IMG/VR virus record: IMGVR_UViG_3300021127_000004
Span: 14,700 to 78,699 of that record
DNA from: a virus
Reading direction: 5' to 3' (one strand)
Length of the DNA: 64,000 nt
The translations under genes were made by a program, and so were the position numbers. This document shows, one piece after another, positions 1-21,128 of the stretch. The notes under the pieces were generated by a model. It was not told where the DNA came from and made no database searches. It saw only the letters and a program-made list of their open reading frames with translations. The stretch's first letter is position 1, and every line of letters begins with the position of its first letter.

Positions 1-81
1 GTTGGCATTGTCGATAAGATTAGCCCATAATATTGCTACTATGAGCGTTAATGAAAATAGTATCGTGTAAACTGCTAACAT
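1..81 (-). CDS. partial small membrane protein (runs off the window start)
   Basis: ATG at 81 overlaps the endolysin stop; reads MLAVYTILFSLTLIVAILWANLIDNAN..., one hydrophobic helix; not in the ORF track. Confidence 0.4.
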   Translation of the reverse strand, partial: MLAVYTILFSLTLIVAILWANLIDNAN

Positions 82-539
82 GGTGTATTGTATAGTGTCC
101 ATTCAGCCCTACGGCGTGTTTCTAGCCCTTTAACGGGCAAGTGGTTAGAGTATATCCATTTGTCAAATTCTAGCTGTATAGACGGGTCTTTTGGGTTTGC
201 GTTTACTTTCTTTAGTAATGTACTTTCGGATAAGTTACCTTCACCCAAATTGTAAGCAAAAGACACCAACGCACCGAACTGATTATCGTTTAATTGTGAT
301 GTGACTAAATGACTAACGGCTACTGCTTTTTGATTGACTTCAAAGGTTAAGTATTCGATTGCTTGTTGTTCTGTAATTGCTGGTTCTCCTACTTTTACTT
401 TGTTGCCATTGGGGTAAGTTGTTGAACCGTATCCGATTGTGTCTATCGAGGGGGCATCTATACTGTCATGATAGGCAGTTGCTGAAAACCCTTCGAAGTG
501 TTTTATTAAATCTATTGTTTGTTTGTTTACTTGTCTCAT
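75..539 (-). CDS. endolysin, GH24 phage lysozyme
   Basis: LIKHFEG catalytic Glu, TIGYG, QFGALVSFAYNLG and GLETRRRAE motifs; lies in the lysis cluster. Confidence 0.95.
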   Translation of the reverse strand: MRQVNKQTIDLIKHFEGFSATAYHDSIDAPSIDTIGYGSTTYPNGNKVKVGEPAITEQQAIEYLTFEVNQKAVAVSHLVTSQLNDNQFGALVSFAYNLGEGNLSESTLLKKVNANPKDPSIQLEFDKWIYSNHLPVKGLETRRRAEWTLYNTPC

Positions 540-543
540 AACC

Positions 544-843
544 TTACTTTTTTAAATCTTCATACCTTAACCCATTGTGATAAGAACGGTAATTTATATC
601 GTCAAAAAATCCATTCATATCATGTTCTACTCCATCCTCTTGCCATCTTAATATTAATCCCACTTCGCACTCATTATCTATATCGTAGCGTATATCGTCA
701 AGATTGAAGAAATACTGGCAACAAAAAGAAGCAATCCCCCCAATATCATCTCCTACCCATCCATCGAAATCTAAAACTTGCTTTCTAATGAATTTATTTA
801 AGTATGCTATTGCTACTGATTCGTAGCGTTGTTTAAGTGTCAT
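544..843 (-). CDS. hypothetical protein
   Basis: 99 aa ORF packed between spanin and endolysin. Confidence 0.6.
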   Translation of the reverse strand: MTLKQRYESVAIAYLNKFIRKQVLDFDGWVGDDIGGIASFCCQYFFNLDDIRYDIDNECEVGLILRWQEDGVEHDMNGFFDDINYRSYHNGLRYEDLKK

Positions 844-1364
844 AACCTAGGTTTTACTATATACAATACCAACGCAATCACTATCGCTGCTAATAATAGC
901 CAGAAATATAAGCACCATTCATTGCCTCTACTATGTTCTTTTGAAACTTGTAGTTGTTGAGTAGTGATTATTCCGTTTAATGTTGCTATCTGCTTGTTTA
1001 AATTCTCTATTTGCGATTTGCAAAGGGATAGTTGTTGGTTGTCGATAATGGTGTCACGGTCGTGTATGTGCGTTGTATTTGTGTGGGTTATTGTAGTGGT
1101 ATCGTGTATGTAATTGCCTACTGTATCATGACAAGTAGCAATAGAGGTATCGTGCAAATAGGTTGTATCGCTCGAATGCGATATCACCTTATTATCGCAA
1201 GGGTGTAAGTTAGTGTAAACTTGCCCCACCGTATCAAATAGCGGTTCTTTAGTTAGCACTTTCTGTAACGCTGTACGGTCGGACATACAACCCGTTAAAT
1301 GCCACATTATCAGTCCAAATAAAATGATAATTCCAATGTAACTATAACCTTTATCTGCTTTCAT
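840..1364 (-). CDS. unimolecular spanin (lipoprotein with C-terminal transmembrane helix)
   Basis: hydrophobic signal plus lipobox LTGC, HDT-rich segment, coiled coil, C-terminal TM (LYFWLLLAAIVIALVLYIV); lies in the lysis cluster. Confidence 0.75.
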   Translation of the reverse strand: MKADKGYSYIGIIILFGLIMWHLTGCMSDRTALQKVLTKEPLFDTVGQVYTNLHPCDNKVISHSSDTTYLHDTSIATCHDTVGNYIHDTTTITHTNTTHIHDRDTIIDNQQLSLCKSQIENLNKQIATLNGIITTQQLQVSKEHSRGNEWCLYFWLLLAAIVIALVLYIVKPRL

Positions 1365-1384
1365 TTTTTCTCTTTTTAAAAGTA

Positions 1385-1481
1385 CCCTCTATCGTTCTTG
1401 TGTTAGATAGAGGGCGTTAAATGTGTCTCGGACACTAGCCCCGTATGATTTAAGGGCGAACTTGGGGCAATGTAGCCGCAA
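1385..1481 (-). other. intergenic cluster of stem-loops (terminator/attenuator-like)
   Basis: CCCTCTATC-N12-GATAGAGGG, GTGTC-TCG-GACAC, GCCC-N12-GGGC and TTGGGGC-N6-GCCGCAA within ~100 nt of GC-rich intergenic DNA. Confidence 0.5.
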
Positions 1482-1486
1482 TCAGT

Positions 1487-1669
1487 TTACTGTGGCGTAG
1501 TGCCTCCTGTTACGTTACCGTCTTTAGCTGCAATCAAACCTGCTGCTACTAAAATAGTAGTTATAGCTGTTGCTACATCTGTTGTCACATATTGGGGATA
1601 TAAAGTATGTGCCAACGTAGGCAATACTGCTAAAATCCCTGCTAATGTTGTCTTCCACGATTTAATCAT
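1487..1669 (-). CDS. holin-like protein (2 TM)
   Basis: 60 aa, KSWKTTLAG N-terminus, two hydrophobic segments and a GLIAAKD ending typical of small phage holins. Confidence 0.7.
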   Translation of the reverse strand: MIKSWKTTLAGILAVLPTLAHTLYPQYVTTDVATAITTILVAAGLIAAKDGNVTGGTTPQ

Positions 1670-1752
1670 TTCTTCTGTTTTAAATTATTATCAAATATTT
1701 TATAACCTATATACATAGACAAAACTACATAAATAAGTTTAATTATCCACAT
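1666..1752 (-). CDS. 28-aa single-TM micropeptide
   Basis: MWIIKLIYVVLSMYIGYKIFDNNLKQKK; start overlaps the upstream stop (TAATG) and stop overlaps the downstream start (ATGA). Confidence 0.55.
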   Translation of the reverse strand: MWIIKLIYVVLSMYIGYKIFDNNLKQKK

Positions 1753-1943
1753 TATTTTTTACTAGCGTCTTTACGGATAGCTTGGTAGTAGTAAATTATG
1801 GCAAAAACGGATACAACACACCCTAATACAAATGAGATAATTTTCATAGTCCAATCGGCTACATTTGCCGATACTGCAAAAAAACCTAATCCCCCTATTA
1901 GTGTTGCAAATCCGTCTGCTGTCTGTTTAATGTGGTGTAACAT
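1752..1943 (-). CDS. holin-like membrane protein
   Basis: 63 aa with two hydrophobic segments and a basic C-terminus, at the head of the lysis cluster. Confidence 0.6.
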   Translation of the reverse strand: MLHHIKQTADGFATLIGGLGFFAVSANVADWTMKIISFVLGCVVSVFAIIYYYQAIRKDASKK

Positions 1944-1960
1944 AGTCTCTTAATGTGATT

Positions 1961-2317
1961 TTATTTGAATGTTAATTTTAAAAACGCCGCAACGAATTGT
2001 AAAAGCATCAACGCCGAACCATCCCAAGCCGTGTATTGTGCTGATGTCAAAGTATACTGATTTGATTTAACCCTCCTGCCATCATTAGCTATTAAAACAT
2101 AGCTAACAGTTACTAAGGTGTCATTTTCACTTGAATAAGACTGATTTGAGCCAGTTATCCCAATAGCTGACAAGGTGTCTTTCTGTTCGGGGAAACCTTG
2201 CCTAAAATAGACTTCGTTTATTCTTGCGGCTGTGCAGCCTGTAATAGTCGTGTCTATTGTTTGAGCCATAACACTTAACGACCCTAATACTAATAATCCT
2301 AATAATAACTTCTTCAT
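1961..2317 (-). CDS. small exported protein of the fibre module (signal peptide)
   Basis: MKKLLLGLLVLGSLSVMA|Q signal peptide; DTT, DTL and DTL sequons. Confidence 0.7.
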   Translation of the reverse strand: MKKLLLGLLVLGSLSVMAQTIDTTITGCTAARINEVYFRQGFPEQKDTLSAIGITGSNQSYSSENDTLVTVSYVLIANDGRRVKSNQYTLTSAQYTAWDGSALMLLQFVAAFLKLTFK

Positions 2318-2328
2318 AATTGATTGAT

Positions 2329-3090
2329 TTATAATCCGTATCTACTTTTTAATGCGTTAAAATTTTGAGCGACTTCTGTTGATGTTAATGCCCTATTATA
2401 TAATTGGCAAACTGATATAAAACCATTATATCCTTGCGTAAGATCTCCCTTATCAGATGCTATTCTTGCATCAAGTCCGCTATTGGTTAGCGTGCTATTT
2501 GTTATAGTACCTGTTGCTTTTGAAACCCCATTAATATATACAGTAATAGCATTGGCGTTATTAGTTACACATATATTAGTCCAATTACTATTTAATATTG
2601 AAACACTTGTTTTTATTTGCGTTAAATTACCGGCATCATTACGTTGCACGAACCCTACTGTAAAACCATCAAAATTACTACCATTGTCTATTTTAAATAT
2701 ATCATTGCCGCTAGATGCCCTTTCACAATACATTGCACCACCCGAAGAAGCGGAATTTACATTTACCCATAAACAAACTGTTGAACTAGATAATGCGCTA
2801 ATAATCTGTTTACCAAAAGAGGCATATTGATTTCCATTAAAAGTAAAGTAACCATTTTTTGAAGTATTAAATGTAGGGCTTGAAACTAAAGTAGTATTAT
2901 TGCTCATTCCACTTATGTCATACCATAAACTCCCAATACCATTATAAGAATTTGAATTTTGAGCGGTAATGTTTGCTATCAATCCATTTGTTACAATTGG
3001 TGGGTATTGCCCGATTGCTCCTAAAAAGAATCGCATAGGCTGTGCGTTTGCAACGCCAATGAATAATAATAAAATAACTAAATATCTCAT
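2329..3090 (-). CDS. LamG/concanavalin A-like lectin domain protein with signal peptide
   Basis: TVCLWV, WTNICVT, VYINGV and LYNRALTSTEVAQNFNA LamG-3 motifs; MRYLVILLLFIGVANA|Q. Confidence 0.85.
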   Translation of the reverse strand: MRYLVILLLFIGVANAQPMRFFLGAIGQYPPIVTNGLIANITAQNSNSYNGIGSLWYDISGMSNNTTLVSSPTFNTSKNGYFTFNGNQYASFGKQIISALSSSTVCLWVNVNSASSGGAMYCERASSGNDIFKIDNGSNFDGFTVGFVQRNDAGNLTQIKTSVSILNSNWTNICVTNNANAITVYINGVSKATGTITNSTLTNSGLDARIASDKGDLTQGYNGFISVCQLYNRALTSTEVAQNFNALKSRYGL

Positions 3091-5547
3091 TTATTTACAA
3101 TTTAATAACCAAACAGACGTAAATTTCGTGCCATCATAAAATATACATATTTCATCCCTCGAACTTGCTGTTGTAGTAAGTGAGGGTATTACTCCTGCTG
3201 GCGAAATAAAGTTAGTATAAGTGGTGATTGTACGACTTCCTGTGGCATCTTGATAAACATCTAAATGATAAGTTCGCCCTGCTACCGCATTGGATATTGT
3301 TAGCGTTCTGCCTGTGCCTGCAAGTGTTACCTGTGCATTGCATCCGTTACGAGCATCCCAAGTAATAGTTGCCCCGTCTGTAAGGGTAATGATGGGGCTG
3401 AAAGTTTGTGTTACTGTTGCTACTGATGCGCTATCTACTTTTAAAGGGCTGCCACTCGTTCCAATTCCTGTCAATCCAAAGCCTGTTGTAATATTAGCCA
3501 CTATTTTAGTCGTATCCAAATTATATGCACCTGTGCTTGAATTGTAGGTAAAGATTGAACCCGTAGAAACGTTGCGAGTTGCAGATAGGCTACTTCCTGC
3601 TAAATAGTCGTTTGATGCACCAGCCGTTGCCGCGCTAACATTACCACTACCGTCCGCCTTTAATATCCCCGTTACACTACCTGCACCGCCTTTAGTACTG
3701 CCTATTACTGACCCGTTCCATGTAGCGTTGGTTATACTTGCCGCCCCTAGATTAAAAGTGTTTGTACTCCAACTTACCGCCGAAGGTGCGCTAAAATGAT
3801 AATCCCATGTACCCGCTGAACTGCCATTGCTTACCAATACAACATAGGCATAACCGCCCGAAGGGATGGATAAAACAGTTGTTCCAGAGTTATTGTTTAC
3901 GGTTACTGCTCCACTAGACTGATTGTTATTGAAACTAAAAGTACACCCATTGGGCAAAGTAGTTGCATCAGGTAACTGCACAACCTGCCCACCTGACCCT
4001 GTTATGTAATAGTTGGGGGTAGATAAAACGGTTAAAGTTATCTGTGTGCCGCTTGCCGCTACGTTACTAAAACCGCTATAAAACGTATTCGCCGCTACAT
4101 TACCACACGCTGTATCTACTGTTACACCGTTGGTATATCCCACATGGTTTGTGCCATTCCAATAAGTTAGGGGTACTTTCGAAGATGTGATAGTTGGGGA
4201 GTTGCCTGTGATGCTACCTGTGCCTTTGTTAGCGTTGAAGTAAGTAGGGGTAATGTATAAACTACTATCCTTAGCCATTAGTACCTGCCTAAAATATTGC
4301 CCCGAACCTATTTGAGCAAATAAACTACCATTATGAGTGCCTATCAAATTATAAGCAACGTTTCTGTTGGTGTCGGGCAATGATAAGTAATTAATAGGAT
4401 ATATCGCACCTCCTGTTATGGCTGCGCTACTCGATGCGGTTACGTCACCTGCAAAATCAAAAGAAACGCCACTATTACTTAATGTGCCTGTTTTGCCGAA
4501 AGTCCAATAGTTAGTATTGTTATTCATTATTTTCAAGTCGTTATTATCCGTAGTACCCAATGTTGCAGTTGTGCCGAATGAGTTGCCGCCTTGTGAGAAA
4601 TAATTAGAAGCGTTTAAACTATCTTTAGGAACGTTACCGATTGCAACCAATAATGAACCGTTTGTATTATTAGCGGTTACTATACCTATTCTCATTGCAG
4701 GGTATAATGTAGAGGGGGTTGGTGATATTCCCCCGTTATCGCCTAGATAAACGTTTTGTCCTGCATTGTATATGCTTAAATTAAGCCCCGTTACTATCCC
4801 CCCGTTATAAACTATTCTTCCATATCCATTATTAGGGATGGAATCTAAAGATATTGCAAAAGGGGGGTATCTAGGATTACTACCTTTTGCTATTGCTATA
4901 CTAGATGTTGAATCAAGGCAAACGGGTGTTAGTGGGGAAATCCCCGTCCCCGTATTTTTGGGACTAGCCCCTACTGTACTTAACCTACTTGAATTGCCAA
5001 GACTATCTATGTAGTAGGGTTCTGTAAAGCCATTATTAGTCTTTGAATAAACCGATATTCCGACACTAGGATTAGAAGGGTCTGTACTTAGTGGGGTATA
5101 ATTATTTTTGGTTGTTTTACCTATGTAATAATATGTCGTACCGCTAGGTGTATCTATTGAAAGATTTGCAGTATAGCTTAATGAATGAACACCATTATAA
5201 AAAGGTATATCTTGAATTACCCCATTGCTGAATGTATTTCCACTTGCTAATGCACTATTGAATTGGGAAACTTTTTTAAAGTTGCTATTAGCTATCCCCC
5301 CGTTTAGAATCCAATAAGAACTATCTACCTTAGTATAAACCATAAAGGTTATAGTATCTCTATAATAAGTGGGGATTGCGTTTCTTGCAATCGTATCATA
5401 AACTACTTTTGTAGCCCCTTGAAGATATGTGCCGTAATATCCTGCATAAGCCCCTGCGGGTTGAATCCCCCCACTAGAATTGATAAACACTTGCCCAAAA
5501 GAATTAAGGCTTATAAAAAGAGATAATATAATTAATAGTTTCTTCAT
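3091..5547 (-). CDS. tail/head fibre-like protein with signal peptide
   Basis: G/S/T/N-rich; C-terminal TLTDGATITWD...QDATGSRTIT...FYDGT domain typical of phage fibres; MKKLLIILSLFISLNSFG|Q. Confidence 0.75.
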   Translation of the reverse strand: MKKLLIILSLFISLNSFGQVFINSSGGIQPAGAYAGYYGTYLQGATKVVYDTIARNAIPTYYRDTITFMVYTKVDSSYWILNGGIANSNFKKVSQFNSALASGNTFSNGVIQDIPFYNGVHSLSYTANLSIDTPSGTTYYYIGKTTKNNYTPLSTDPSNPSVGISVYSKTNNGFTEPYYIDSLGNSSRLSTVGASPKNTGTGISPLTPVCLDSTSSIAIAKGSNPRYPPFAISLDSIPNNGYGRIVYNGGIVTGLNLSIYNAGQNVYLGDNGGISPTPSTLYPAMRIGIVTANNTNGSLLVAIGNVPKDSLNASNYFSQGGNSFGTTATLGTTDNNDLKIMNNNTNYWTFGKTGTLSNSGVSFDFAGDVTASSSAAITGGAIYPINYLSLPDTNRNVAYNLIGTHNGSLFAQIGSGQYFRQVLMAKDSSLYITPTYFNANKGTGSITGNSPTITSSKVPLTYWNGTNHVGYTNGVTVDTACGNVAANTFYSGFSNVAASGTQITLTVLSTPNYYITGSGGQVVQLPDATTLPNGCTFSFNNNQSSGAVTVNNNSGTTVLSIPSGGYAYVVLVSNGSSAGTWDYHFSAPSAVSWSTNTFNLGAASITNATWNGSVIGSTKGGAGSVTGILKADGSGNVSAATAGASNDYLAGSSLSATRNVSTGSIFTYNSSTGAYNLDTTKIVANITTGFGLTGIGTSGSPLKVDSASVATVTQTFSPIITLTDGATITWDARNGCNAQVTLAGTGRTLTISNAVAGRTYHLDVYQDATGSRTITTYTNFISPAGVIPSLTTTASSRDEICIFYDGTKFTSVWLLNCK

Positions 5548-6516
5548 TTATTGAAAAGTTACTGCTGTTGCTGAAAGATTACCAATTTGATTATTACTTA
5601 CTGTATAGTATCCATTATATGTTCCCCCACTTGCATTTGTAAAGGTAATTGAATTATTTAGACTAAATGCAGATGTAGATGGGAATCCATTTACGGTAAC
5701 ACTTGTAACTGTACTCGTATTGACATAGAAAAGATACTTTGCGCTGCCTTGTTGTGGGATTGTGTACGAAAGTGAAGTTGCCCCCCCGCTATTATCTTGA
5801 TATAAGGCTGCCAATATTTCTGCTTGGGTGGGGGTTGTTGTTGCCGAAAATCCCAAATACCTTTTGTTATAAAAGGAAAATATAGTCGTTGCCGTAGCCG
5901 TTTTTGAATCAGTAGTAGTGACTACATTGCTATATGTAGTATTAGTGTTTCTTGTTACTGAAACTCCTTGTGTGCCTGTTACTGTACTACCTGCACTTGG
6001 TTGTGTAAATGTTTGCCCTGTACCTGCTACTACTATTGTAGCAATGGGATTTGTTGCTCCCTGTGTTGATGTAGCCGATAATCTCCCCGCCCCCCAATTT
6101 AAAGTGTAAGACAATGCAGCCCCACTAGCAACGATTTCCTGTGAAAATCCCCCTGTCAAAGTAGCAGTAGGGTTTTGTGTTTGTATCTTAACATACCCCA
6201 ACAAGGTATCATTAAGTGCTGTATGGGTTACAAATAGGCTACTATCTACGGTTGATGAGTTTCGTTTCCATCCGAAACCATTCCAAAACCATTTTGCTGT
6301 ATCCACCCCTGCATTTGCAAAAATTATTTCTGTACCATAATAACGGGCTTTCATATTTGTATCCGTCCTTACTGCGGGGATATAGCCACTATCTGATTTT
6401 AAAAAAGCGTATTTTATCCAACTTGTAGAATTGGTTACGGGATTACCTTGTGGGAGTGATTGCGAAAATCCCCCTACCAAAAACAAACTTAATAATATAG
6501 TTAATAGTATCTTCAT
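5548..6516 (-). CDS. virion appendage/Ig-like beta protein with signal peptide
   Basis: T/S-rich beta protein in the fibre module; MKILLTILLSLFLVGGFS|Q. Confidence 0.65.
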   Translation of the reverse strand: MKILLTILLSLFLVGGFSQSLPQGNPVTNSTSWIKYAFLKSDSGYIPAVRTDTNMKARYYGTEIIFANAGVDTAKWFWNGFGWKRNSSTVDSSLFVTHTALNDTLLGYVKIQTQNPTATLTGGFSQEIVASGAALSYTLNWGAGRLSATSTQGATNPIATIVVAGTGQTFTQPSAGSTVTGTQGVSVTRNTNTTYSNVVTTTDSKTATATTIFSFYNKRYLGFSATTTPTQAEILAALYQDNSGGATSLSYTIPQQGSAKYLFYVNTSTVTSVTVNGFPSTSAFSLNNSITFTNASGGTYNGYYTVSNNQIGNLSATAVTFQ

Positions 6517-6554
6517 TTATTTAATTGTTATTTATTAAGGGTAAACGCGGATTT

Positions 6555-8666
6555 CTATTGATAAACACGTAAGTAAATATTTGAAAATGTCAATAACCCA
6601 TCCGTTAAAACACCGCTTGAATTATATGTATAAAAAGTGAAAATATTTTTATATATTATACCTGATTGCGTTGTAGAAAAAGTACCATTAGTTATTTTAT
6701 TGTCGGAGAATGATATATCTGTATTATTCCCACAATATTGGAAGTGAATATTTGTTTTTGTAGATATAGTGCAAGTGTAAGTTCCTGTAGATATATAGTC
6801 AAAATGAACTGAATTAACACTAAATGTATCTATATCATCTACAAATACCTTTTGAATTGTAGGGGCTGTTGTTCCGCTTTGATATAACCTAGCTCTAAAT
6901 TCATAATATCCTTTTGAGGGGATATTCGCTTGTACATAATTCTTTACTGCATTAACACTAGGATATAGTATATTGCTTGCGCTATCTGATGGATTTATTG
7001 ATACCGCTAAGTTATTTACGTCTTGGGGGATTAATCCTTGATTTTGCACTGAATATAACCATTCGCCGCTACCTACATATTGTAATCTAACTTGTATGCC
7101 CGAATCTACTGTAATATTATTTGTATAGCTTCCACTAGATGCTGTTGCGTAAAAATAAGTCCCTGTATTAGACCTTAAATTAAAATTGTTATTCAAACTA
7201 TAAGAACCTGTTATATTGTATATGTAATCTGTTTCACCTATTTTTGGGTTAGGATTAGTAAATAGTGAATACCCACTATTTGTAGGGTTTACAAAAGTAT
7301 ATTTAGAAGTTGTAGTTATTGTTCCACTTAGGGTTATTACTGTGTCAGTATAAGAAACACTATTTGCTTTTACAAATCTAGTGATAGCTTGTACACTAGG
7401 GTACTTCGTAGTAGAAGCACTATCAGATGTTGCATTGTTAGATAAATTACTTAACGCTTGTGCATATCTGCCTACTGATTGAACTGTTGGGTATTTTGTT
7501 GTGCTGCTACTATCGCTTGCTACATTTGTTGATTTATTAGCAATATTTTCGGGTACATACCCTAAGCCAACATTAAGAATATCCCAATTAGTAGATGTTT
7601 GCCCGGGGCTATTAGTCAATGCCCTTACACTAGACCCTACTACAACCGATGTCCCGCCTAAAGTACCTGCTACTTTTATATACCATAAATCTCCCTTTTG
7701 TATAGCCCCTGCTGTGCCACTACCCCCCGTTGAAGGGAAAACGTTGCCACTAGCATCGTAACTACCTCTGTCATTAAGAAGTCCTACTACTAGACCTGCG
7801 GCATAGGTTCTTGTGGCTTGTTGTGTAGGGTATAAAGTAGAACTATTTGCAGCCATAGTCCCATCGTTAGAAAGGTTTGATGTAACTTGATAGCCACTAA
7901 GGTTTGGGGCGTGGTTGGTTACATAAGACTTTACTGCGTTTTGTGTAGGTAGAGAATACAATGGGGAACTAGAAAGGGATGTATCATTTGAAAATGCGTT
8001 TACACCATACCCCCCTAGATTAATAAAAGAACTAGCTTGTAAGGACAATGCTTCTATACTAGAAAAGTTATTATCTCCCGTAAACACATTGTTTTTAGCT
8101 AAATAAGGGATTCTTGTAGTGTCAATAGAACCACCTCCTCCACCTTGATGATTAGTTACATACGATTTTACTGCTTTTTGTGTGGGCAATATTGCATTTG
8201 AATTACTTGTCATTGCGGTATCGGTAGATATTGATGATATTAATTGACCGCTAGTAAACCCCAAAAAACCATTTATTGTCAATGTATTATAATGCCCGTC
8301 TATTGATAGGGTAGTTCCTGCATCATTATTATTAATATCTCCTATTGTAGTAATATCTCCATTTATTGATAACCCACTTGCATCGTTGTTGTTACTTACG
8401 TTTATATTAGGGAAAGTATTATTGCCTGTAAAATTATTATTCTTAGCTAAATAAGGTATTTTAGTACTATCAATAAGTTTTGAATTATTTATCTTGTTGT
8501 AGATAATGTTTTCAAACATCCTACCTACTCTTACGGCGGTGTTAGCCCCTGCCCTTGTTTCATTTTTTATTGTATCTGCTTGTGTAATTAATTGGGCATC
8601 TGTTAATTGGGATTTCCCCTCAAAGTAAACAAGCCCCAACAAAACTAATAAAATAACTTTCTTCAT
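6555..8666 (-). CDS. fibre protein with signal peptide and internal repeats
   Basis: N-terminal IKNET-AGANTAVRVG segment; repeated PTQKAVKSYV/YPSVQA fibre units; duplicated IPYLAKNNxFTG; MKKVILLVLLGLVYFEGKS|Q. Confidence 0.75.
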   Translation of the reverse strand: MKKVILLVLLGLVYFEGKSQLTDAQLITQADTIKNETRAGANTAVRVGRMFENIIYNKINNSKLIDSTKIPYLAKNNNFTGNNTFPNINVSNNNDASGLSINGDITTIGDINNNDAGTTLSIDGHYNTLTINGFLGFTSGQLISSISTDTAMTSNSNAILPTQKAVKSYVTNHQGGGGGSIDTTRIPYLAKNNVFTGDNNFSSIEALSLQASSFINLGGYGVNAFSNDTSLSSSPLYSLPTQNAVKSYVTNHAPNLSGYQVTSNLSNDGTMAANSSTLYPTQQATRTYAAGLVVGLLNDRGSYDASGNVFPSTGGSGTAGAIQKGDLWYIKVAGTLGGTSVVVGSSVRALTNSPGQTSTNWDILNVGLGYVPENIANKSTNVASDSSSTTKYPTVQSVGRYAQALSNLSNNATSDSASTTKYPSVQAITRFVKANSVSYTDTVITLSGTITTTSKYTFVNPTNSGYSLFTNPNPKIGETDYIYNITGSYSLNNNFNLRSNTGTYFYATASSGSYTNNITVDSGIQVRLQYVGSGEWLYSVQNQGLIPQDVNNLAVSINPSDSASNILYPSVNAVKNYVQANIPSKGYYEFRARLYQSGTTAPTIQKVFVDDIDTFSVNSVHFDYISTGTYTCTISTKTNIHFQYCGNNTDISFSDNKITNGTFSTTQSGIIYKNIFTFYTYNSSGVLTDGLLTFSNIYLRVYQ

Positions 8667-8682
8667 ATATCTATTTTAATTT

Positions 8683-9480
8683 TTAACTAAACGTATTGTC
8701 AAATGTATTATCAAATGTATCTACCGAACTCCCCCCACTACTAACCGCATAATCTATTATTACTTTCATCCCATATTGTAATCCTAAGTTCTCTGTTGGG
8801 TTATCTATGGAATAGTTAAAGAATGTAATTGTGACAAAGGTAGGGGTATAAATTATATCTACGCTAAGTTGCCCTACAATATTTGGAAATATTCTTGTGC
8901 CGTCTATATATACCTTTACTGATTTAGTTGCTATATTAGCAGAATTTATAGTATATGTAGTGGCGTTTGCAGGAATTATAATGGGGGAATCCACTCCTAC
9001 TATTGCATCTATCTCATTGAATACGGTATTTCCGCTGCCGCTAGTTGATGTAAAGTTATTGGATTGATACCATAGTGAGTTTATCCCTTTGCTTATCCTT
9101 AAAGCCTGATTTGCAGGTATATAATTAAGTTGTTCACCAAAAGAAGTATAGTAGACTTTACCGCTTGCAAGGTTCACATCATCCCCTGTTAGGTTTATTA
9201 TAATCCATTCGTTATATACATTGTCCCCAAAAGTGATAGAAGTAGGGGTTATGCCACTTATTACCGTTACCCCGTTTGATAATGTTATATCCCCCCCTGT
9301 TGTTATAGTTTTAGCCCCGTTCCAATTAAGGGGGGATTGTTGGATAAATTTAGCCAACCCATTTATCTGTGCATTACCAAAAATACCCGTTATATCCCCA
9401 ACCCCATTTGGTATCCAAATAGTATTCGTGTCTTGTAATAGAGCCGCTAAGGTTTGATATGTAACATTTGGGTAAATCAT
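8683..9480 (-). CDS. virion hub/fibre adaptor protein
   Basis: N-terminal IPNGVGDITG segment and C-terminal DTFDNTFDNTFS repeat; lies in the structural module. Confidence 0.55.
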   Translation of the reverse strand: MIYPNVTYQTLAALLQDTNTIWIPNGVGDITGIFGNAQINGLAKFIQQSPLNWNGAKTITTGGDITLSNGVTVISGITPTSITFGDNVYNEWIIINLTGDDVNLASGKVYYTSFGEQLNYIPANQALRISKGINSLWYQSNNFTSTSGSGNTVFNEIDAIVGVDSPIIIPANATTYTINSANIATKSVKVYIDGTRIFPNIVGQLSVDIIYTPTFVTITFFNYSIDNPTENLGLQYGMKVIIDYAVSSGGSSVDTFDNTFDNTFS

Positions 9481-10278
9481 TTATCCTTTATTTCTATGCA
9501 ATGAGTATTGTTCTATAAATTGGTCTCTAGTAACTATTCCAAACTTCTCTAATAATCTTCCAACAAATTCGTTTTTAAGGTTTACCCCCCACTCTAATTG
9601 TTGGCTATTTTTTGAATCATAAACTATTTGCCCCCCTGCACCCGTATTCAAATTAGGGGTTGTTGTTGTGTATGCAAATGTAGCTTGTTTTGGCAATCTA
9701 AAATAATATAGGACAACAACGCTTACATCTCTAGGGGCTACGTTGAAAACCCCGTTTACCTGTACCATTTTAGGTTTACTCATTGAAGGTCTTTTATCTT
9801 CAAATTCGTGGTTTAAACAAGCATCCCAACGTTGTAAGTCTACCTCTGTAATATCTACTTCTCTTATGCTATTTAAGTAGTCATTAATGCTTTGTGCAGG
9901 CGGAGTTACTTCTTGATTATCTTCATCTTTGTAACACAATCCTTTGTTTACTTTATCGTTGGGGATTGTTATTACACTATCATCTGTCTTTACTGTTATC
10001 ATCCCTGCTTTGAATAACCTTCCGTAGTCTTTAGGTATATTGGCAGTAGTGTAGTATGATGTAGCGGGGTTTGTTATGATATTTTGAGAAACTAAAAACG
10101 GGCGCATATTATCCCTCCATTCTTGGCTTTTTTCTGATTCACGGCATCCCATTTCCCATAACTCATAGTTGATAAGATTAAGATGCCTTATGAATACCGT
10201 AGCAGGGGGGATAAACCCCCCTTGAAACGTATTTGCTTCCGAACATAAATCTTGATATAAGTCGTATGAATCTATCAT
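9481..10278 (-). CDS. tail ring / head-tail adaptor protein
   Basis: ANTFQGGFIPP..F N-terminus and YFRLPK...YD..SQQLEW C-terminus resemble ring proteins of crAss-related podoviruses. Confidence 0.65.
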   Translation of the reverse strand: MIDSYDLYQDLCSEANTFQGGFIPPATVFIRHLNLINYELWEMGCRESEKSQEWRDNMRPFLVSQNIITNPATSYYTTANIPKDYGRLFKAGMITVKTDDSVITIPNDKVNKGLCYKDEDNQEVTPPAQSINDYLNSIREVDITEVDLQRWDACLNHEFEDKRPSMSKPKMVQVNGVFNVAPRDVSVVVLYYFRLPKQATFAYTTTTPNLNTGAGGQIVYDSKNSQQLEWGVNLKNEFVGRLLEKFGIVTRDQFIEQYSLHRNKG

Positions 10279-10281
10279 CTA

Positions 10282-12876
10282 TTAAGGGCAATTTATTGAT
10301 TGTAATGCACCTACTACTGCATTTGTTACTGCCCATATAGTACCATCCCCTAATGCAACTGCTGTAATAGTGTTTGAAATAGGTATTGATGTGCCACTAT
10401 CTGTATATAGTGTAACCCCACTAGCAAAAGAAGAAGTCGTATAAATGGTGGTATAAGGTTGGCTACAAACCGCCGTTGTAAGTACTGTACCTAATTGTAC
10501 TACTGTCGCTATTGATGGTGGCGTAACTAATATTGTTTGTTCTACTCCGCTTGCAGGACTTGAACAATTTTGCAATACTTGAATGTCGTAAGTAACCCCC
10601 ACCGTAACAGGAATGCTTACAGGTGTAACCAAATACCCATTGCTACCTACTGTTATTGCGGTAGAATATGTTGTATAAGGATATGCAGGGGAATGTCCAC
10701 TAACACGATAAAGGACTGTTACTGTTTGTGCTGATGTAGGTATTGTGTCAAAAGCCAACTTGGTAATATTCAAATTTGTCCCCGAAATATTATATAAGAA
10801 AGAAAGTATAAGTGGGCAACTTGTTGTATTTGCACAAATAGTCGATGCTATGCAAAAATTATTCAAGAATTGTGTATCTGTGATACCTATTGCCATTATA
10901 GCCCTTGCTAATTGTATAGGGGTTGCAAACCCACAAGCATTGGCAAAAACCCCCAATATAATATCTGTTGAAGCAACGGAAGATGCAGGTGTACCAAAAA
11001 CCCCCTTGACTACATTACAATTTGTCCCTTTGTTCCCTAATGAATAAGCAACCAAAGACCCTAAAGCAGTATTTACCGCTTGTATGTAAATATCTAATTC
11101 ACCCCCTTGTGCTACTACTATATCTTGCTCTAATCCTGTTGAATTATTTAAAGCAGGAACGGTATAAGATTGGGATGTGAATACTTCGCTAGTGTCTAGT
11201 GTACAGATTTTATTGATTATATTCTGTATTACTGTTTGTGCAGGGATAGGAACATAACCCCCACTTGTCTTAGTAAATGTAGCCGCATAATTAGAACTAG
11301 CAACTGAATAGTTAAGCCCTATGATTACATTAGGATTAGTGTTAGATACTATATGAATAGTGCCATCTGCGGGGGAATCCCCACTTACTGAAAAAGTACC
11401 TATCCCTAAAGTGTTAAGATATGTTTGTAGTGCAGGTAAGTTATTAGTATTGAAAGTAAAGTTAGTAAGGATACTTTCGCTTTGTAGTTGGAAAGAAGTC
11501 AATATTGCATACACCCCTACCCCTGTTGGGATATTGGACAATGTGAAAGTATAGTTATTTGCTACACTACTATTGAATACGCATTTACCATCTACTATTA
11601 TATCGAAGTTGCTGCTTTGGTTTAATTGGTTTATCAAATTGGGGTTAGCCAAAATAGCATTAACCAAATCTTGTGCAAGTACTGCTTCGTTTACTTTTAG
11701 GGTGTATGTCTTTTGGTCTCCCGAAACAGAAGTACTCCAAGAATAAGCATCTTCATTTGAAGGGTCAACTGCCACTAAGTAAGTTATATCCCCTATTGTA
11801 AGGGTTACGTTATTACCTGTTGCAGAATAAGAGCCTGTTATATCCCCACTAGGATTAAGTATGTAGTTTATCCCGTTTGATATTGCATTTTTACCCGTAA
11901 CTATACCTGACCCAATACCATAACAATTACAAGAAAATTTACCAATACGTTTTATCTTTTCAATAGTTGCAGGGACATCCACGCCCGTAAGTGGCTGCCA
12001 TAAGCCAATTACTACTTGTATAAAAAGGCTATTAATTTGCATTAATTGGTCTCTTGCGGCAGATATATCCACACAAGTACCATATCTGATAGTATCCTCT
12101 AATTTAGTTATTTCACATACTAAAGGGGAAAGGTCAATATTACATAATGCAGCAAATGTCTTTCTTTGGAAGTAAAGTATGGTTACATAAGTATCATTAC
12201 CGTATGCGTAATTGTAAATAGAGTTTTGTACAAATTCATAAGCATCTGAACTTACTGTAAGTGGGGCAGAACATACGGCATAATTATTAGCCACAAAAGG
12301 GATTGGGCTTGTCCCTGTCCCATCCAAAGGATATTTAAGGCTTAGTGTAGATGATATTTGTGTGCCTATCAAACCATTGTAACCATAATTTGTTTGGTCT
12401 TGGAATAAAACGCTTTGTTGGCTACATTGTACCGTTGCTATTGTAGATGCCAAACCTGTCATATCCTGCGAAGCAGTAGTGTTCCCGTTTGGTCTTATTA
12501 TTGTAGCATTTTGTACTGGGGCGGTATATATATTCCCTACACTATCCTGACAAGTTACTTGGAATGTAAAAGGTACAGGAGAAAATTCTATATTACCTGC
12601 GGGCATAGGGAATCTATCGTTCAATACCGTATTAGACCAAACCCCCACAATATCAGGATTACTAATATCCCCGTTATGTATGATTGTTTGTGAAGGTGAT
12701 ATTACCAAAAATGCGTATGATACATTTTGTAGGTTTGTCCCCGTACTAAGATTTTGTAGTTTTACTTTAGGGGTTGGCTGTACGTTGCCATTTGAATCAA
12801 CATTTTGTGTCAAATCAAAAGTTACGGCTACCCTTAAAAGACCTATATCGGGAGAATTTGTTATTACTAATGACAT
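10282..12876 (-). CDS. large Cys-rich virion structural protein
   Basis: 864 aa, S/T/N/V-rich with many Cys; sits between capsid and tail genes. Confidence 0.6.
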   Translation of the reverse strand: MSLVITNSPDIGLLRVAVTFDLTQNVDSNGNVQPTPKVKLQNLSTGTNLQNVSYAFLVISPSQTIIHNGDISNPDIVGVWSNTVLNDRFPMPAGNIEFSPVPFTFQVTCQDSVGNIYTAPVQNATIIRPNGNTTASQDMTGLASTIATVQCSQQSVLFQDQTNYGYNGLIGTQISSTLSLKYPLDGTGTSPIPFVANNYAVCSAPLTVSSDAYEFVQNSIYNYAYGNDTYVTILYFQRKTFAALCNIDLSPLVCEITKLEDTIRYGTCVDISAARDQLMQINSLFIQVVIGLWQPLTGVDVPATIEKIKRIGKFSCNCYGIGSGIVTGKNAISNGINYILNPSGDITGSYSATGNNVTLTIGDITYLVAVDPSNEDAYSWSTSVSGDQKTYTLKVNEAVLAQDLVNAILANPNLINQLNQSSNFDIIVDGKCVFNSSVANNYTFTLSNIPTGVGVYAILTSFQLQSESILTNFTFNTNNLPALQTYLNTLGIGTFSVSGDSPADGTIHIVSNTNPNVIIGLNYSVASSNYAATFTKTSGGYVPIPAQTVIQNIINKICTLDTSEVFTSQSYTVPALNNSTGLEQDIVVAQGGELDIYIQAVNTALGSLVAYSLGNKGTNCNVVKGVFGTPASSVASTDIILGVFANACGFATPIQLARAIMAIGITDTQFLNNFCIASTICANTTSCPLILSFLYNISGTNLNITKLAFDTIPTSAQTVTVLYRVSGHSPAYPYTTYSTAITVGSNGYLVTPVSIPVTVGVTYDIQVLQNCSSPASGVEQTILVTPPSIATVVQLGTVLTTAVCSQPYTTIYTTSSFASGVTLYTDSGTSIPISNTITAVALGDGTIWAVTNAVVGALQSINCP

Positions 12877-12889
12877 ATTCTAAATTTTT

Positions 12890-12925
12890 AAAAACAAAAA
12901 GGGCGAACCGAAAATCAGCCGCCCT
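12890..12925 (-). terminator. rho-independent terminator after the capsid gene block
   Basis: minus strand AGGGCGGCTGA-TTT-TCGGTTCGCCCT followed by TTTTGTTTTT. Confidence 0.8.
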
Positions 12926-12959
12926 ATTACCCACCACCCACAGCGCAATGGGCAACTAT

Positions 12960-13739
12960 TTACACGGCTGTTATTACTGTACCAAAGTTATCTCCCAAAG
13001 TAAATCCTGTTGCGAATAATGTTGAGTTAGTCGAATCAAGATACCAAGTAATTTCACCCCCGTTTGTATAATTTGCGTTTAAGTATGTCAACAATGCTGC
13101 GGGTGTAGAATATGTAGTTGGTGCTGTTGGAAGAAACACGTTATTGATAATCCCTTGTGGGAAATATTTTAAAGAACCACTTAATGTTGGCAACGCTACG
13201 GTTGTGTAATTAACCCCTGCCGCAAAGTAAGTAATAGTCCCATCATTTGTTTGATTGATACTTACTTGTGGTATAATTACTTTAGGAAATAATGTAGGGT
13301 CAACTGCAAATATTTGTCTAGGTGAATTAAATGGGTCTGTTATTTGTACAATACCTTGCATCAATATAACCGTACCCCCACTTTGGACACTAGCTGCTGC
13401 CATCAAATCTGTCAATTCCCCAAATATGTACCAATACTTAGATGTTCTAGGTTCTTTAATCAAGAAACAAGGAAGGCTATCTACGGTAGGTGGGGTTAAG
13501 TAATATTGCCCCGTCCTTAATGTATTGTAATCAAACCCCGTAAAAACACCATTATCTGAAATAGGTACAGCCCATCTATCGTAGTTATCAAACTTTAAAT
13601 CAGATGCCTTTGTTGGAACATACAATGCCTTTGGAGAACAGGATAGACCGTTTACCATATCAAGGAAGTCTATCCCGTTTTCGTTTAAGACACACGCCGC
13701 AACGGTATTACCAAAAATATAAGGAGCAGGTGTTGACAT
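12960..13739 (-). CDS. auxiliary capsid/decoration protein (paralog 2)
   Basis: shares ALPTLSGSL..FP and Y.TPA.LLT..NA with 13759..14490; lies downstream of the MCP. Confidence 0.55.
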   Translation of the reverse strand: MSTPAPYIFGNTVAACVLNENGIDFLDMVNGLSCSPKALYVPTKASDLKFDNYDRWAVPISDNGVFTGFDYNTLRTGQYYLTPPTVDSLPCFLIKEPRTSKYWYIFGELTDLMAAASVQSGGTVILMQGIVQITDPFNSPRQIFAVDPTLFPKVIIPQVSINQTNDGTITYFAAGVNYTTVALPTLSGSLKYFPQGIINNVFLPTAPTTYSTPAALLTYLNANYTNGGEITWYLDSTNSTLFATGFTLGDNFGTVITAV

Positions 13740-13758
13740 TAATTACTTTTATTTACTA

Positions 13759-14490
13759 TTAAAGTGCAGGGTTCACCGCAATCACACCACCACCAAATAC
13801 TATTGGAGTGGTAGCACTAAAGTTTGTAATCGTACCAATCAAGGTAAGGTTATCAGAACTCAAAGCCCAAGTGAAAGTAGTAGAACCGATTGTAGTCCAA
13901 TGTGCATTTGCAAATGTCAATAGGTTTGCAGGGGTTGTATAAGTTGTACCTGCTATTGATGCAGTAGGATATGCTTCTGTACCATTCACGTTTGCAAAAG
14001 GGAATAGTTGCAAGCTACCTGACAAGGTAGGCAATGCTAGGTTTACAGTTGTGTTACCGTTTACATCTGCACCATATACTGTTTGTACCCCATAAAGCGT
14101 TGCAGCCCCGTGAATGTAATAAACAGAATTGTAAGGGTTGGCTGAACCATTCAAGTATGCAGTTGTAGTTGGCAATGCAGTACCACCATTGGAAGCAGTT
14201 ACATATTGTGCAGAAGTACCTACTACTATCCAACTGTCTGAACTATTAGTCATAGACAATTTGAATACAGGGATACCCCACAATGGCAATGGCTGATTAG
14301 GGCTGTCTGCAAGGTTATAAGGGATATAGTCGTAATCGGAAACAAACCCCTCATTAACAGGAACTGCATAATAATCGCCGTCTAAGTGACCGCCCTCTAA
14401 AGGGGTAGCAATTTCTTGTAAAGAACCTATTAGTTGGGATTTCACGAAATCAATCTGATTCCCCTTTCTTAATACTAACGCTTGTATCAT
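13759..14490 (-). CDS. auxiliary capsid/decoration protein (paralog 1)
   Basis: paralog of 12960..13739; co-transcribed with the MCP before the terminator. Confidence 0.55.
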   Translation of the reverse strand: MIQALVLRKGNQIDFVKSQLIGSLQEIATPLEGGHLDGDYYAVPVNEGFVSDYDYIPYNLADSPNQPLPLWGIPVFKLSMTNSSDSWIVVGTSAQYVTASNGGTALPTTTAYLNGSANPYNSVYYIHGAATLYGVQTVYGADVNGNTTVNLALPTLSGSLQLFPFANVNGTEAYPTASIAGTTYTTPANLLTFANAHWTTIGSTTFTWALSSDNLTLIGTITNFSATTPIVFGGGVIAVNPAL

Positions 14491-14502
14491 AATTTATATT
14501 GT

Positions 14503-15450
14503 TTAATTTTCTGAAACTTGTTTTTCTTTTAAGTCAACCTTTGCTATCAACTCTTGATATTTAGCTGCATATTCAGGGGTTTTAAGCAATTCTGCGATTT
14601 GTTTAATCTTAGTCTTTTCGCTTAAATTTTTACCTTCGTAATTAGCCAATACCTTATTGTCGTCAACAAATGAAGCTGTATTTGCCCCTATGTTTATAAC
14701 TTGCAACTCTTTTGCGTGGACAATCAATGTTGTTACATTATCATCCAAAGTGGTAATAGTATTAAGGAACGTTTCAGGGTCTGCGCTTGCCATACCTGCC
14801 AATACTGTTAATTTTTGGGAGTATGTATCGCCACCGTAAGCATTGAACAATGATAATAATGTATCAATCTTAGTTGTTTGGTAAACGTTTTTGCCCCCTT
14901 CTTTCTTGACTAAGTTAGCAACATACCCAATAGCCTTGTTACTTACTATCCACCTGTCGTTAAATTGTTCCTCGTCTTTCAAAGGCTCAATTACTTTAAA
15001 GAACTTCTTTGATGTATCCCCATCAGGTCTGTTTGTTGCATTCTCGTTAAAGGCGCAATCCCTCATAAAAGAAAACATCCCCCTGTCACCTTCGTCTTTA
15101 AGAACTAGGATACCGTTTGGTATCTTTATTTTCTCCCCACTAGGGATATACTCCCCGTTTTCATTGGTTCTAGTTTGGATGCCCTTGGCTTGTAATTTGG
15201 TAATCTCGTTTTCATAGATTCCTTTTACATACCTAATTGGGATTTGATTCCCTTCCTCATCCCACTTGTAACTAATTGTAGGTAGGTAAATCACGCTAGG
15301 AAAAGACTTTACATCTTCTGTCTTTTGTGACATTACATTCGGGGCGATTTCCCTTCTAAATCCGCTATCCCCCTTAATCGTACTTTCAAAGATTAATACC
15401 TGTACTTCTTTCTTTTTGCTAGAAGGTTTAGCTGTGGCTACTTCTGTCAT
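14503..15450 (-). CDS. capsid-module protein of unknown function
   Basis: 315 aa immediately downstream of the MCP. Confidence 0.6.
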   Translation of the reverse strand: MTEVATAKPSSKKKEVQVLIFESTIKGDSGFRREIAPNVMSQKTEDVKSFPSVIYLPTISYKWDEEGNQIPIRYVKGIYENEITKLQAKGIQTRTNENGEYIPSGEKIKIPNGILVLKDEGDRGMFSFMRDCAFNENATNRPDGDTSKKFFKVIEPLKDEEQFNDRWIVSNKAIGYVANLVKKEGGKNVYQTTKIDTLLSLFNAYGGDTYSQKLTVLAGMASADPETFLNTITTLDDNVTTLIVHAKELQVINIGANTASFVDDNKVLANYEGKNLSEKTKIKQIAELLKTPEYAAKYQELIAKVDLKEKQVSEN

Positions 15451-15471
15451 TTATCTACGTTTTATTGTTTA

Positions 15472-17037: not shown

Positions 17038-17064
17038 ATTGTTTTATTTTATTGTTTGTTTGTT

Positions 17065-18183
17065 TTAATTATTTTCCGCACTATAATAAGCGTTTCTTTT
17101 TTCTATCCCCGTCTTTACTTCTGTACCATTGCTCAAAGCAACCCTGTCTTTCAATATCCCTTTCAACCCCCCTTTGTGCCTGATAACCCCCTTATTTACC
17201 GCATCTGACAATATGCTTGGCAAGTTTTCTACTATGATGGCATTTTTTACTATCGTAGATATTTGCTCTTTTGTAGCACCGTTTAGTATTTGCTTTCTAG
17301 CTTCTGATTCAGATAAGAAGTGTTCAATATATCCTTCTATCGCTTCACTAGCATCTACTTTTAAAGTCCAATCAACGCCTGCTATTGGCAATTCCAAACT
17401 TTTCAATTCGGTCTTTACTTCTTCTATGATAGCCTTATATGTTGGGGCTTTTGAAAGAACTTCTTTGTTTACCTTTTCTTCTTCTGATTTTTGTTTTTCA
17501 AAAGAAGTGTATTTATCTTCTAGGCTTACTATTTCGGGGAATGTACTTTCGATAATGTTTTTTGCAAGTGCATTAAGAAGTTTTTGCCCTCTCTTATACT
17601 TTGCGCTTTCTTTATCTTCGTTCAATCCAAACTTTTCGTCATATTCCGCCTTGAAATCATCTTCGTCAAATCCTTCTTCTTGTCTTGCTTCTTCAAGTTG
17701 TTGTTCATAAACTGCTTGGTGTGGGTTTGCATTTACTTTTGTAAACAATTCAAAACTTTCTGCATCAATCAGCTTGTTTTGTAACCCCCAAGCAAGGGAT
17801 TCTGATTTACGTCTTGATTTTTCTGCCTTTTCATCAACTACGGGTTTAAATAAATCAGAAACATCATCACGACCCGTTTTCTTTTTAAGGTATTCTACGA
17901 CTGCTTCGTCTGTCAATTCGATTTTAGCAGGGGCATCGTCTTTTTTTTCTTCAACTATTGGGGTAACTTCTTCTTTTTGTTTTGCGCCAATCTTTAAAGG
18001 GGTTTCGTCAATAACTTCTTCTGACTTATCATCTACGTTATCAACTTTATTTGCAGGGGTTTCCAAAGAACTATAATATTCGTCTCTTTTCTTCCTAGCC
18101 TCTAGGACTGCGGCATCATCACCGCCTCCTCCTGTTATTTCTGTATCCGTGTTGAAAATGAATTTGCTGTGGGTGCGAATCAT
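17065..18183 (-). CDS. capsid scaffolding protein
   Basis: very E/D/K-rich and helical; directly upstream of the MCP. Confidence 0.65.
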   Translation of the reverse strand: MIRTHSKFIFNTDTEITGGGGDDAAVLEARKKRDEYYSSLETPANKVDNVDDKSEEVIDETPLKIGAKQKEEVTPIVEEKKDDAPAKIELTDEAVVEYLKKKTGRDDVSDLFKPVVDEKAEKSRRKSESLAWGLQNKLIDAESFELFTKVNANPHQAVYEQQLEEARQEEGFDEDDFKAEYDEKFGLNEDKESAKYKRGQKLLNALAKNIIESTFPEIVSLEDKYTSFEKQKSEEEKVNKEVLSKAPTYKAIIEEVKTELKSLELPIAGVDWTLKVDASEAIEGYIEHFLSESEARKQILNGATKEQISTIVKNAIIVENLPSILSDAVNKGVIRHKGGLKGILKDRVALSNGTEVKTGIEKRNAYYSAENN

Positions 18184-18217
18184 AAATAATTAATTACGAT
18201 GTAAAATTGCACCCGAT

Positions 18218-18248: not shown

Positions 18249-18268
18249 TAATCTTTCAAAGTGATTAT

Positions 18269-21104: not shown

Positions 21105-21128
21105 CACGAATTAATTAAACTAGAAAAA

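Follow-up and report, generated by a model that had tools for sequence, protein, structure and literature searches.

The window analysed here is a stretch of 64,000 nucleotides (nt) that makes up the 3′ 64 kb of the 78.7-kb IMG/VR viral contig IMGVR_UViG_3300021127_000004. Its subject is a block of five minus-strand genes encoding fibre-like proteins with predicted signal leaders. The virion module, on the minus strand, runs from the terminase gene through the portal gene and signal-less structural genes to the five leader genes and then the lysis genes, so that the leader genes form the distal end of the module, just ahead of the lysis cassette. The original prediction, made on this DNA before the present analysis, listed four signal-bearing proteins. 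Their open reading frames (ORFs) match the description, and each lies on the minus strand, but a fifth (2329-3090, 253 amino acids, aa) had been overlooked. The fibre block was found in reads and contigs of freshwater and lake metagenomes from many studies; no RNA dataset was among the sequencing runs listed as containing it.

The features of the module are as follows. A slash marks the predicted leader cleavage site, and sequon means the strict motif D-(S/T)-(A/I/L/V/M/T).

26376-28712, minus strand: large terminase, by PHROG match.
18589-21069, minus strand: portal, by PHROG match.
8683..12876, minus strand: three structural proteins (265, 265 and 864 aa) with no signal, immediately upstream of the leader genes.
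10282-12876, minus strand: the 864-aa structural protein, signal-less.
6555..8666, minus strand: 703-aa fibre protein; leader MKKVILLVLLGLVYFEGKS/Q; 7 sequons.
5548..6516, minus strand: 322-aa predicted exported protein; leader ...LVGGFS/Q; 2 strict sequons.
3091..5547, minus strand: 818-aa modular fibre protein; leader ...SLNSFG/Q; 9 sequons.
2329..3090, minus strand: 253-aa lectin-like (Laminin_G_3 / ConA-like) predicted exported protein; leader ...GVANA/Q; 0 sequons.
1961..2317, minus strand: 118-aa predicted exported small partner of the 818-aa fibre; leader ...SLSVMA/Q; 3 sequons.
1487..1943, minus strand: two small membrane proteins of 63 and 60 aa with hydrophobic segments, holin-like by position (putative role).
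840..1364, minus strand: 174-aa spanin-like lipoprotein (putative role); lipobox LTG/C and C-terminal hydrophobic helix.
75..539, minus strand: leaderless endolysin (Phage_lysozyme; PF00959, E = 2e-33; phrog_7 endolysin).

All five leader-bearing proteins (118, 253, 818, 322 and 703 aa) begin with a basic n-region and a hydrophobic core that end in a small-x-small site with Gln at +1. The predicted cleavage sites are VMA/Q, ANA/Q, SFG/Q, GFS/Q and GKS/Q, respectively. The calls were made from sequence with a home-made rule for the N-terminus. Gln at +1 is the Q-rule for signal peptidase I (SPI) substrates of Bacteroidetes (Bochtler et al. 2018, as summarised in PMC10367356), and it is obeyed by 5/5 leaders in the window and by 26/26 leader-bearing homologues of the 818-aa protein. 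The leader sequences diverge between relatives while their properties are kept. The genes abut in a tightly packed operon and the earliest internal Met in them is residue 49 or later; a leaderless isoform is therefore unlikely. The five proteins carry real-looking Sec/SPI leaders of the Bacteroidota type.

By their domain content, the leader-bearing proteins are built from tail-fibre modules. The 253-aa protein matches Pfam PF13385 (Laminin_G_3, E = 4e-20) and, among PHROGs, the C-termini of families labelled 'virion structural protein'. In homologues of the 818-aa protein the C-terminal domain is K1-lyase_C, F5/8 type C or Peptidase_S74, and the central domain of the 703-aa protein is present in leaderless fibres of other viral contigs. 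The 118-, 322-, 703- and 818-aa proteins themselves have no match in Pfam and PHROGs. For the 322-aa protein the nearest protein-atlas clusters consist of viral proteins, some of them annotated with Mtd_N and Phage_tail_C, which we take as leads only.

The 703-aa protein provides the most telling sign of a fibre identity. A domain with the pattern TDAQLI..A..IKNET..GANTA.RVG comes right after its predicted cleavage site, and the leaderless fibres P0046, P0048, P0056, P0063 and P0114 start 2-4 residues before the same domain. This suggests that a leader was grafted onto a conventional fibre N-terminus, and that cleavage would restore the ordinary start.

The 118-aa gene closes the fibre block, in the manner of a small gene that follows a fibre gene. 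Its subtype tracks the C-terminal domain of the fibre and not the N-terminal one; the small-partner subtypes match the fibre C-termini in loci L007, L015 and L017, and again in L014 and L020. Such co-variation resembles that of fibre-chaperone or fibre-adhesin pairs. The AlphaFold2 (AF2) model of the 118-aa protein has a pLDDT of 80, and no convincing solved relative was found for it (best Foldseek E = 0.07, best VIA-align Z = 5.0).

A close relative, IMGVR_UViG_3300025789_000038 (L007), encodes structural proteins that are 99% identical to those of the window, and its leader-bearing genes are mosaic, with conserved N-terminal and exchanged C-terminal parts. A Q-rule leader is retained in 4/4 of these genes. 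In the homologue of the 818-aa protein the leader has a different sequence with the same properties; in that of the 322-aa protein the leader and the first residues are conserved, and everything after them has been exchanged.

It might be argued that the hydrophobic N-termini are membrane anchors, or propeptides cut by a phage protease, and that the proteins stay on the cytoplasmic side. The leader calls do rest on our own rule, and the capsid 'signal peptides' of Porphyromonas gingivalis phages are, in the account of PMC10367356, probably removed by a prohead protease. We nevertheless hold this to be very improbable. The n-h-c layout, the small-x-small site and Gln at +1 occur in 5/5 window proteins and 26/26 homologues despite their divergence, the 703-aa protein, once cut at its predicted site, would begin as leaderless fibres do, and a periplasmic modification motif is enriched only in leader-bearing proteins.

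That motif is the sequon of the Bacteroidota O-glycosylation system. As described in a review (PMC12871550), the targets of the system are D-(S/T)-hydrophobic sites that are accessible in non-cytoplasmic proteins. Engineered motifs are glycosylated too, also across species, and the motif is enriched in the non-cytoplasmic proteins of the hosts. According to the same review, the oligosaccharyltransferase of the system is still unidentified.

We counted the strict sequon and took the expectation from composition-preserving shuffles. The hand counts of 3, 9, 2 and 7 in the 118-, 818-, 322- and 703-aa proteins, given in the original prediction, proved exact (21 in 1961 aa). The 864-aa signal-less protein, put there at about 3, has 3 (expected 3.5), and 6/7 Asp residues of the 322-aa protein do precede S/T, as had been claimed (expected 1.95, p = 0.002). 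The excess is significant for the 818-aa protein (9 sequons versus 3.0 expected, p = 0.0008), the 703-aa protein (7 versus 2.9, p = 0.02) and the 118-aa protein (3 versus 0.5, p = 0.007). Pooled mature sequences of the four proteins hold 21 sequons versus 7.4 ± 2.5 expected, and 0/20,000 shuffles reach 21; with the 253-aa protein added, the expectation rises to 8.0 and again 0/20,000 shuffles reach 21. As internal controls, the signal-less proteins of 265, 265 and 864 aa have 0, 1 and 3 sequons versus 1.25, 0.75 and 3.5 expected, and ten signal-less structural proteins pooled have 14 versus 18.2.

The excess reaches beyond the fibres. The 174-aa spanin-like lipoprotein holds 5 sequons versus 0.9 expected (shuffle p = 0.0006). 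A 267-aa predicted exported protein, a putative nuclease encoded upstream of the window (contig G000, nt 11213-12016, minus strand), has an SWG/Q site behind a long basic n-region, and its mature part holds 3 sequons versus 0.68 expected (p = 0.02).

The same counts were made over 86 loci and contigs, comprising 80 viral loci chosen for a gene related to the mid-domain of the 818-aa protein, a few further loci and the contig of the window itself. ORFs were called, N-termini were classed by a simple rule and redundancy was removed, which left 561 proteins. Observed and expected sequons and their ratio (O/E) by class are:

Leader followed by Q, 28 proteins: 148 observed, 46.7 expected, O/E 3.17.
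Other leader or lipoprotein calls, 21 proteins: 35 observed, 10.3 expected, O/E 3.38.
Leaderless, 512 proteins: 433 observed, 435.5 expected, O/E 0.99.
Leaderless, S/T-rich, at least 200 aa, 89 proteins: 115 observed, 147.2 expected, O/E 0.78.

None of the control motifs is enriched among the exported proteins. The O/E is 0.46 with Glu and 0.59 with Asn at position -1, 0.90 for the reversed and 1.01 for the permuted motif, and D-[ST] followed by a non-hydrophobic residue gives 0.55.

Matched comparisons within families, whose members are not independent samples, give the same result. A collection of 5.8 billion proteins yielded 31 homologues of the 818-aa protein, 26 with a leader followed by Q and 5 leaderless; the former hold 213 sequons versus 69.6 expected, the latter 14 versus 14.1. 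Among fibres with the same N-terminal domain as the 703-aa protein, those with a leader hold 18 sequons versus 6.8 expected and the leaderless ones 8 versus 12.0.

Conservation was also seen at the level of positions. The alignment of the 118-aa family has only 12 invariant columns; D47 and T48 are two of them, and every member has A, I or L at position 49. Conservation of Asp residues in the 818-aa family is 71% within sequons, versus 50% elsewhere. The swapped, non-homologous segments of the close relative IMGVR_UViG_3300025789_000038 again carry sequons. Since the excess is motif-exact, limited to signal-bearing proteins and recurrent in non-homologous segments and in relatives, exposure to periplasmic O-glycosylation, together with selection for it, is its best reading.

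Could the excess be a by-product of fibre repeats, shared ancestry and S/T-rich composition, with no glycosylation behind it? Three of the 7 sequons of the 703-aa protein (3/7) lie within a repeated motif (S-D-S/T-A ... YP-S/T ... V) that is also typical of fibres, and could be structural. The 322-aa protein, with 2 strict sequons versus 0.9 expected (p = 0.22), has no significant excess, and the 253-aa protein, with 0 versus 0.6, has neither excess nor deficit of significance. The ten leader-bearing homologues of the 703-aa protein together have an O/E of 1.39, the distant ones being near expectation, and homologues in general are non-independent samples. A by-product, however, should also appear in leaderless homologues of the two fibre families, which are at or below expectation, and in the 89 leaderless S/T-rich proteins, which fall short of it. 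Nor would it explain the enrichment of unrelated exported proteins, such as spanin-like lipoproteins with 4-6 sites each and the putative nuclease, the lack of enrichment of permuted, reversed and E- or N-substituted motifs, or the return of sequons in swapped segments that share no homology. We regard this explanation as improbable.

A similar block occurs in other phages. In L014, L017 and L020, a large leader-bearing fibre and a leader-bearing partner of about 120 aa come last in the tail module, ahead of the lysis genes. L014 (IMGVR_UViG_3300025789_000072; block at 9377-13986) is a myovirus contig with sheath, tape measure and baseplate hub genes, from the same sample as the close relative L007; L017 comes from a 46.8-kb and L020 from a 39-kb complete genome. 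The spanin-like protein of L014, located in its lysis cassette, is identical to that of the window in the first 34 residues, and its endolysin differs from the window endolysin at 1 of the first 30 residues. This indicates that the block is exchanged between unrelated phages, probably of one host. L014 also encodes a 143-aa Q-rule leader protein between its capsid and sheath genes.

The spanin-like lipoproteins are encoded at 840-1364 (minus strand) in the window and at 12825-13349 in L014, 13610-14068 in L017 and 13340-13828 in L020, and have 5, 4, 4 and 6 sequons in 152-174 aa. With its lipobox and C-terminal membrane helix, the window protein would suit a single-component spanin. A 99-aa ORF separates its gene from that of the endolysin. 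The N-terminus of the endolysin is not hydrophobic; without a leader, its release would depend on a holin, and a holin making large holes is expected. The 63- and 60-aa membrane proteins lie between the fibre block and the lysis genes, and a PHROGs search gave no match for them.

Cultured phages of Cellulophaga carry a comparable block. By weak matches (E = 1.6e-15 and 1e-25), the window portal and terminase are assigned to PHROGs 6547 and 6681, which also hold their counterparts from phi46:3 (KC821622), and the phi46:3 portal gene is 98% identical to that of phi18:3 (KC821620; Pachyviridae). A 'crAss-like' label, which rested on gene layout alone, was dropped because of these portal and terminase families, phi46:3 also belonging to the Pachyviridae. 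In tblastn searches no phage record matched the portal and no Cellulophaga phage record matched the 818- and 703-aa proteins; window DNA 1-20000, the portal and the 703-aa protein had no match in the phage record collection. The relation of the window phage to Pachyviridae appears distant at best. Gene order is alike in phi18:3 and phi46:3, with leader genes, lysis genes, a GroES-like gene, terminase and portal. The genes for phi18:3 gp085-087 and phi46:3 gp079-083 are consecutive, all have Q-rule leaders and stand directly before the lysis genes. Fibre-block genes are common to unrelated types of Cellulophaga phages, of podovirus and siphovirus size, much as they are here to a podovirus-like and a myovirus contig.

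The phi18:3 record annotates gp085-087 as 'structural protein' from experimental tandem mass spectrometry (MS/MS) proteomics of virions. This annotation of an analogous phage is the only direct hint that such proteins reach virions. The sequon usage is opposite in the two groups. The window proteins are three-fold enriched, whereas the leader proteins of phi18:3 (L174, 3892-9584) are depleted, with 3 sequons versus 9.7 expected (P = 0.012), as are those of phi46:3 (L170, 344-8946), with 3 versus 15.5 (P < 0.0002). Export may thus exist without glycosylation, or even while avoiding it.

Taken together, these data lead us to favour, with moderate confidence, the reading that the fibres are exported and O-glycosylated by the periplasmic system of the host, glycosylation being an adaptation of exported proteins and not the general cause of their export. 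The original prediction, that the host glycosylates exported fibres in the periplasm, stands as far as leaders, fibre modules and a specific sequon excess go, but the excess is not specific to fibres. Its further claim, that glycosylation 'supplies a reason for the signal peptides', is not supported. The leader proteins of the Cellulophaga phages carry export signals but few sequons, and the spanin-like lipoprotein and the putative nuclease of the present phage are enriched as well.

The proposed sequence of events would begin with export of the five proteins to the periplasm through their Sec/SPI leaders. There, the large fibre would fold with its co-exported small partner, which is matched to the fibre C-terminal domain. 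The general O-glycosylation system of the host would modify the fibre proteins at D-(S/T)-(A/I/L/V/M/T), and the sequon excess would reflect selection for glycosylation in this host lineage, like that on the host's own non-cytoplasmic proteins. Mature fibres would keep an ordinary fibre N-terminal domain and most likely join cytoplasmic particles after the holin has opened the inner membrane or the cell has lysed.

A wider and more tentative proposal follows, one that we offer as possible and short of probable. Some tailed phages of Bacteroidota may assemble in two compartments, with heads and tails made in the cytoplasm, and fibres and partners exported by Sec, folded in the periplasm, coated at selected sites with the O-glycan of the host and docked only upon holin opening or after lysis. 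Seeking the glycan, as in the lake lineage (O/E about 3), or shunning it, as in the Cellulophaga phages (O/E about 0.2-0.3), would then be a selected, host-specific trait of the virion.

Several observations weigh against the favoured reading. Those named above are the missing strict excess of the 253- and 322-aa proteins, the sequons within a fibre repeat, the near-expectation counts of the distant 703-aa homologues and the depletion in both Cellulophaga phages. The AF2 monomer model of the 818-aa protein is poor (pLDDT 48) and gives no structural support for a fibre architecture. The Bacteroidota host is itself deduced from the Q-rule, the lack of Shine-Dalgarno use, the portal and terminase families shared with Cellulophaga phages and the sequon excess. 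Finally, we know of no mechanism by which fibres in the periplasm could be joined to particles assembled in the cytoplasm.

Another explanation is that the leader proteins are not parts of the virion but exported fibre- or lectin-like proteins that act on the envelope of the infected cell. They might mask or destroy receptors, which would exclude superinfection and protect progeny from debris, or loosen capsule and envelope when the progeny leave, and the only effect of glycosylation would be to make them more stable in the periplasm. The cytoplasm is where particles of tailed phages are put together, and ordinary assembly is closed to an exported protein. One member of the block is a lectin domain, homologues have depolymerase-type ends (K1-lyase_C), and mosaic evolution is expected of receptor-masking proteins too. 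In PMC10367356, Q-rule leader genes of P. gingivalis prophages were interpreted as modifying the surface of the host. On the other side, phi18:3 gp085-087, leader-bearing and in the same position, are annotated as structural by MS/MS, and the leader protein of L014, L017 and L020 takes the place of the fibre, last among the tail genes and just ahead of lysis. In its mature form the 703-aa protein retains the domain that forms the N-terminus of leaderless fibres, and conserved N-terminal with exchanged C-terminal parts are the pattern of receptor-binding fibres. We judge an envelope-acting role rather unlikely, and retain the reading of exported, glycosylated virion fibres.

The host is probably a member of the Bacteroidota. 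Shine-Dalgarno cores precede 7% of the starts, versus a background of 4.5%, which fits such a host. Matches to the Bacteroidota promoter consensus TTTG-N17-21-TAnnTTTG show no enrichment in the window (5 versus 4.2 expected). One TTTG-N-TAnnTTTG match, at 55848-55880 on the plus strand, lies 20 nt before the ATG at 55901 of the first gene of the plus-strand block. A search of 185,579 species genomes gave no relative of the fibre module or its mid-domain. Among the bacterial GroEL proteins found, none shares more than 39% identity with that of the phage, and the best matches are in unrelated phyla.

The GroEL gene (558 aa) and an adjoining 99-aa ORF in the position of GroES occupy 45687-47672 on the minus strand. 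In phi18:3, gp096 is a 200-aa 'cpn10'; the matching place in the window is 21102-21902 (plus strand), beside the portal gene.

A glycan-enzyme cassette is located at 48737-51569 (minus strand). It encodes a GT25-like glucosyltransferase of 206 aa, a two-domain GT11-like glycosyltransferase of 525 aa and a methyltransferase of 216 aa (phrog_21658), all leaderless and so probably cytoplasmic. The close relative has the 525-aa enzyme at 98% identity; L014, L017, L020 and phi18:3 lack it. We considered the glycosyltransferase cassette as a general companion of leader-bearing fibres and rejected the idea, given its absence from these four. The cassette could alter a host surface glycan or the O-glycan on the exported proteins.

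Two further observations concern the rest of the contig. Genes of NAD-salvage type at 52575-55269 (minus strand) encode a 480-aa protein of the NAMPT/NAPRTase family and a 286-aa protein with a phosphoribosyltransferase domain. Upstream of the window, at the contig end (contig G000, nt 10-285, plus strand), is an ORF of tandem MFGTMLRYR repeats, which may be a terminal repeat or an assembly artefact.

In the usual view, tailed phages make their fibres in the cytoplasm and attach them there. A large, recurrent class of fibre genes with cleavable leaders, marked as well by the footprint of selection for a periplasmic glycosylation system, challenges that view. The sequon enrichment provides independent, sequence-only evidence that the leaders work. 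If the favoured reading is true, many Bacteroidota phages would have glycoproteins as host-range determinants, and the host strain would dictate their sugar. This would bear on receptor-binding prediction, recombinant fibre expression, the engineering of gut and aquatic Bacteroidota phages, virion stability and antigenicity. The opposite sequon signal in cultured Cellulophaga phages offers a tractable test system.

Among known systems, the nearest are the substrates of Bacteroidota O-glycosylation itself. The window proteins resemble them in their Sec signals, in the same motif enriched only in non-cytoplasmic proteins and in the conserved positions; they differ in being encoded by a lytic-type phage and in consisting of tail-fibre modules. 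Our literature search found no paper reporting phage proteins as substrates of this system, and, for tailed phages, no paper on periplasm-matured, exported or host-O-glycosylated fibres.

The leader genes of P. gingivalis prophages (Matrishin et al. 2023, PMC10367356) likewise have SPI leaders that expose an N-terminal Gln, and were read there as an adaptation to Bacteroidota secretion. They differ in that their function is unknown, and the account gives neither a homology to fibres nor a sequon analysis.

The mosaic adhesive trimer (MAT) fibres of Bdellovibrio bacteriovorus (Caulton et al. 2024, PMC10769870) are similarly modular and phage-fibre-like, with a signal peptide ahead of a conserved N-terminal domain and, in some, S74 chaperone ends, and they show that tail-fibre-like proteins can fold after Sec export. 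Unlike the window proteins, they are cellular, sit on the predator's own surface and are not phage-encoded, and no connection with O-glycosylation is described for them.

The present analysis contributes the matched contrasts between proteins with and without a leader, the evidence for a grafted leader and the depletion of sequons in Cellulophaga phages. The virions of mycobacteriophages are also glycosylated, by phage-encoded cytoplasmic glycosyltransferases that act on capsid and tail proteins. There the enzymes are those of the phage and work in the cytoplasm, whereas for the fibres of the present phage we propose export and modification by the periplasmic system of the host.

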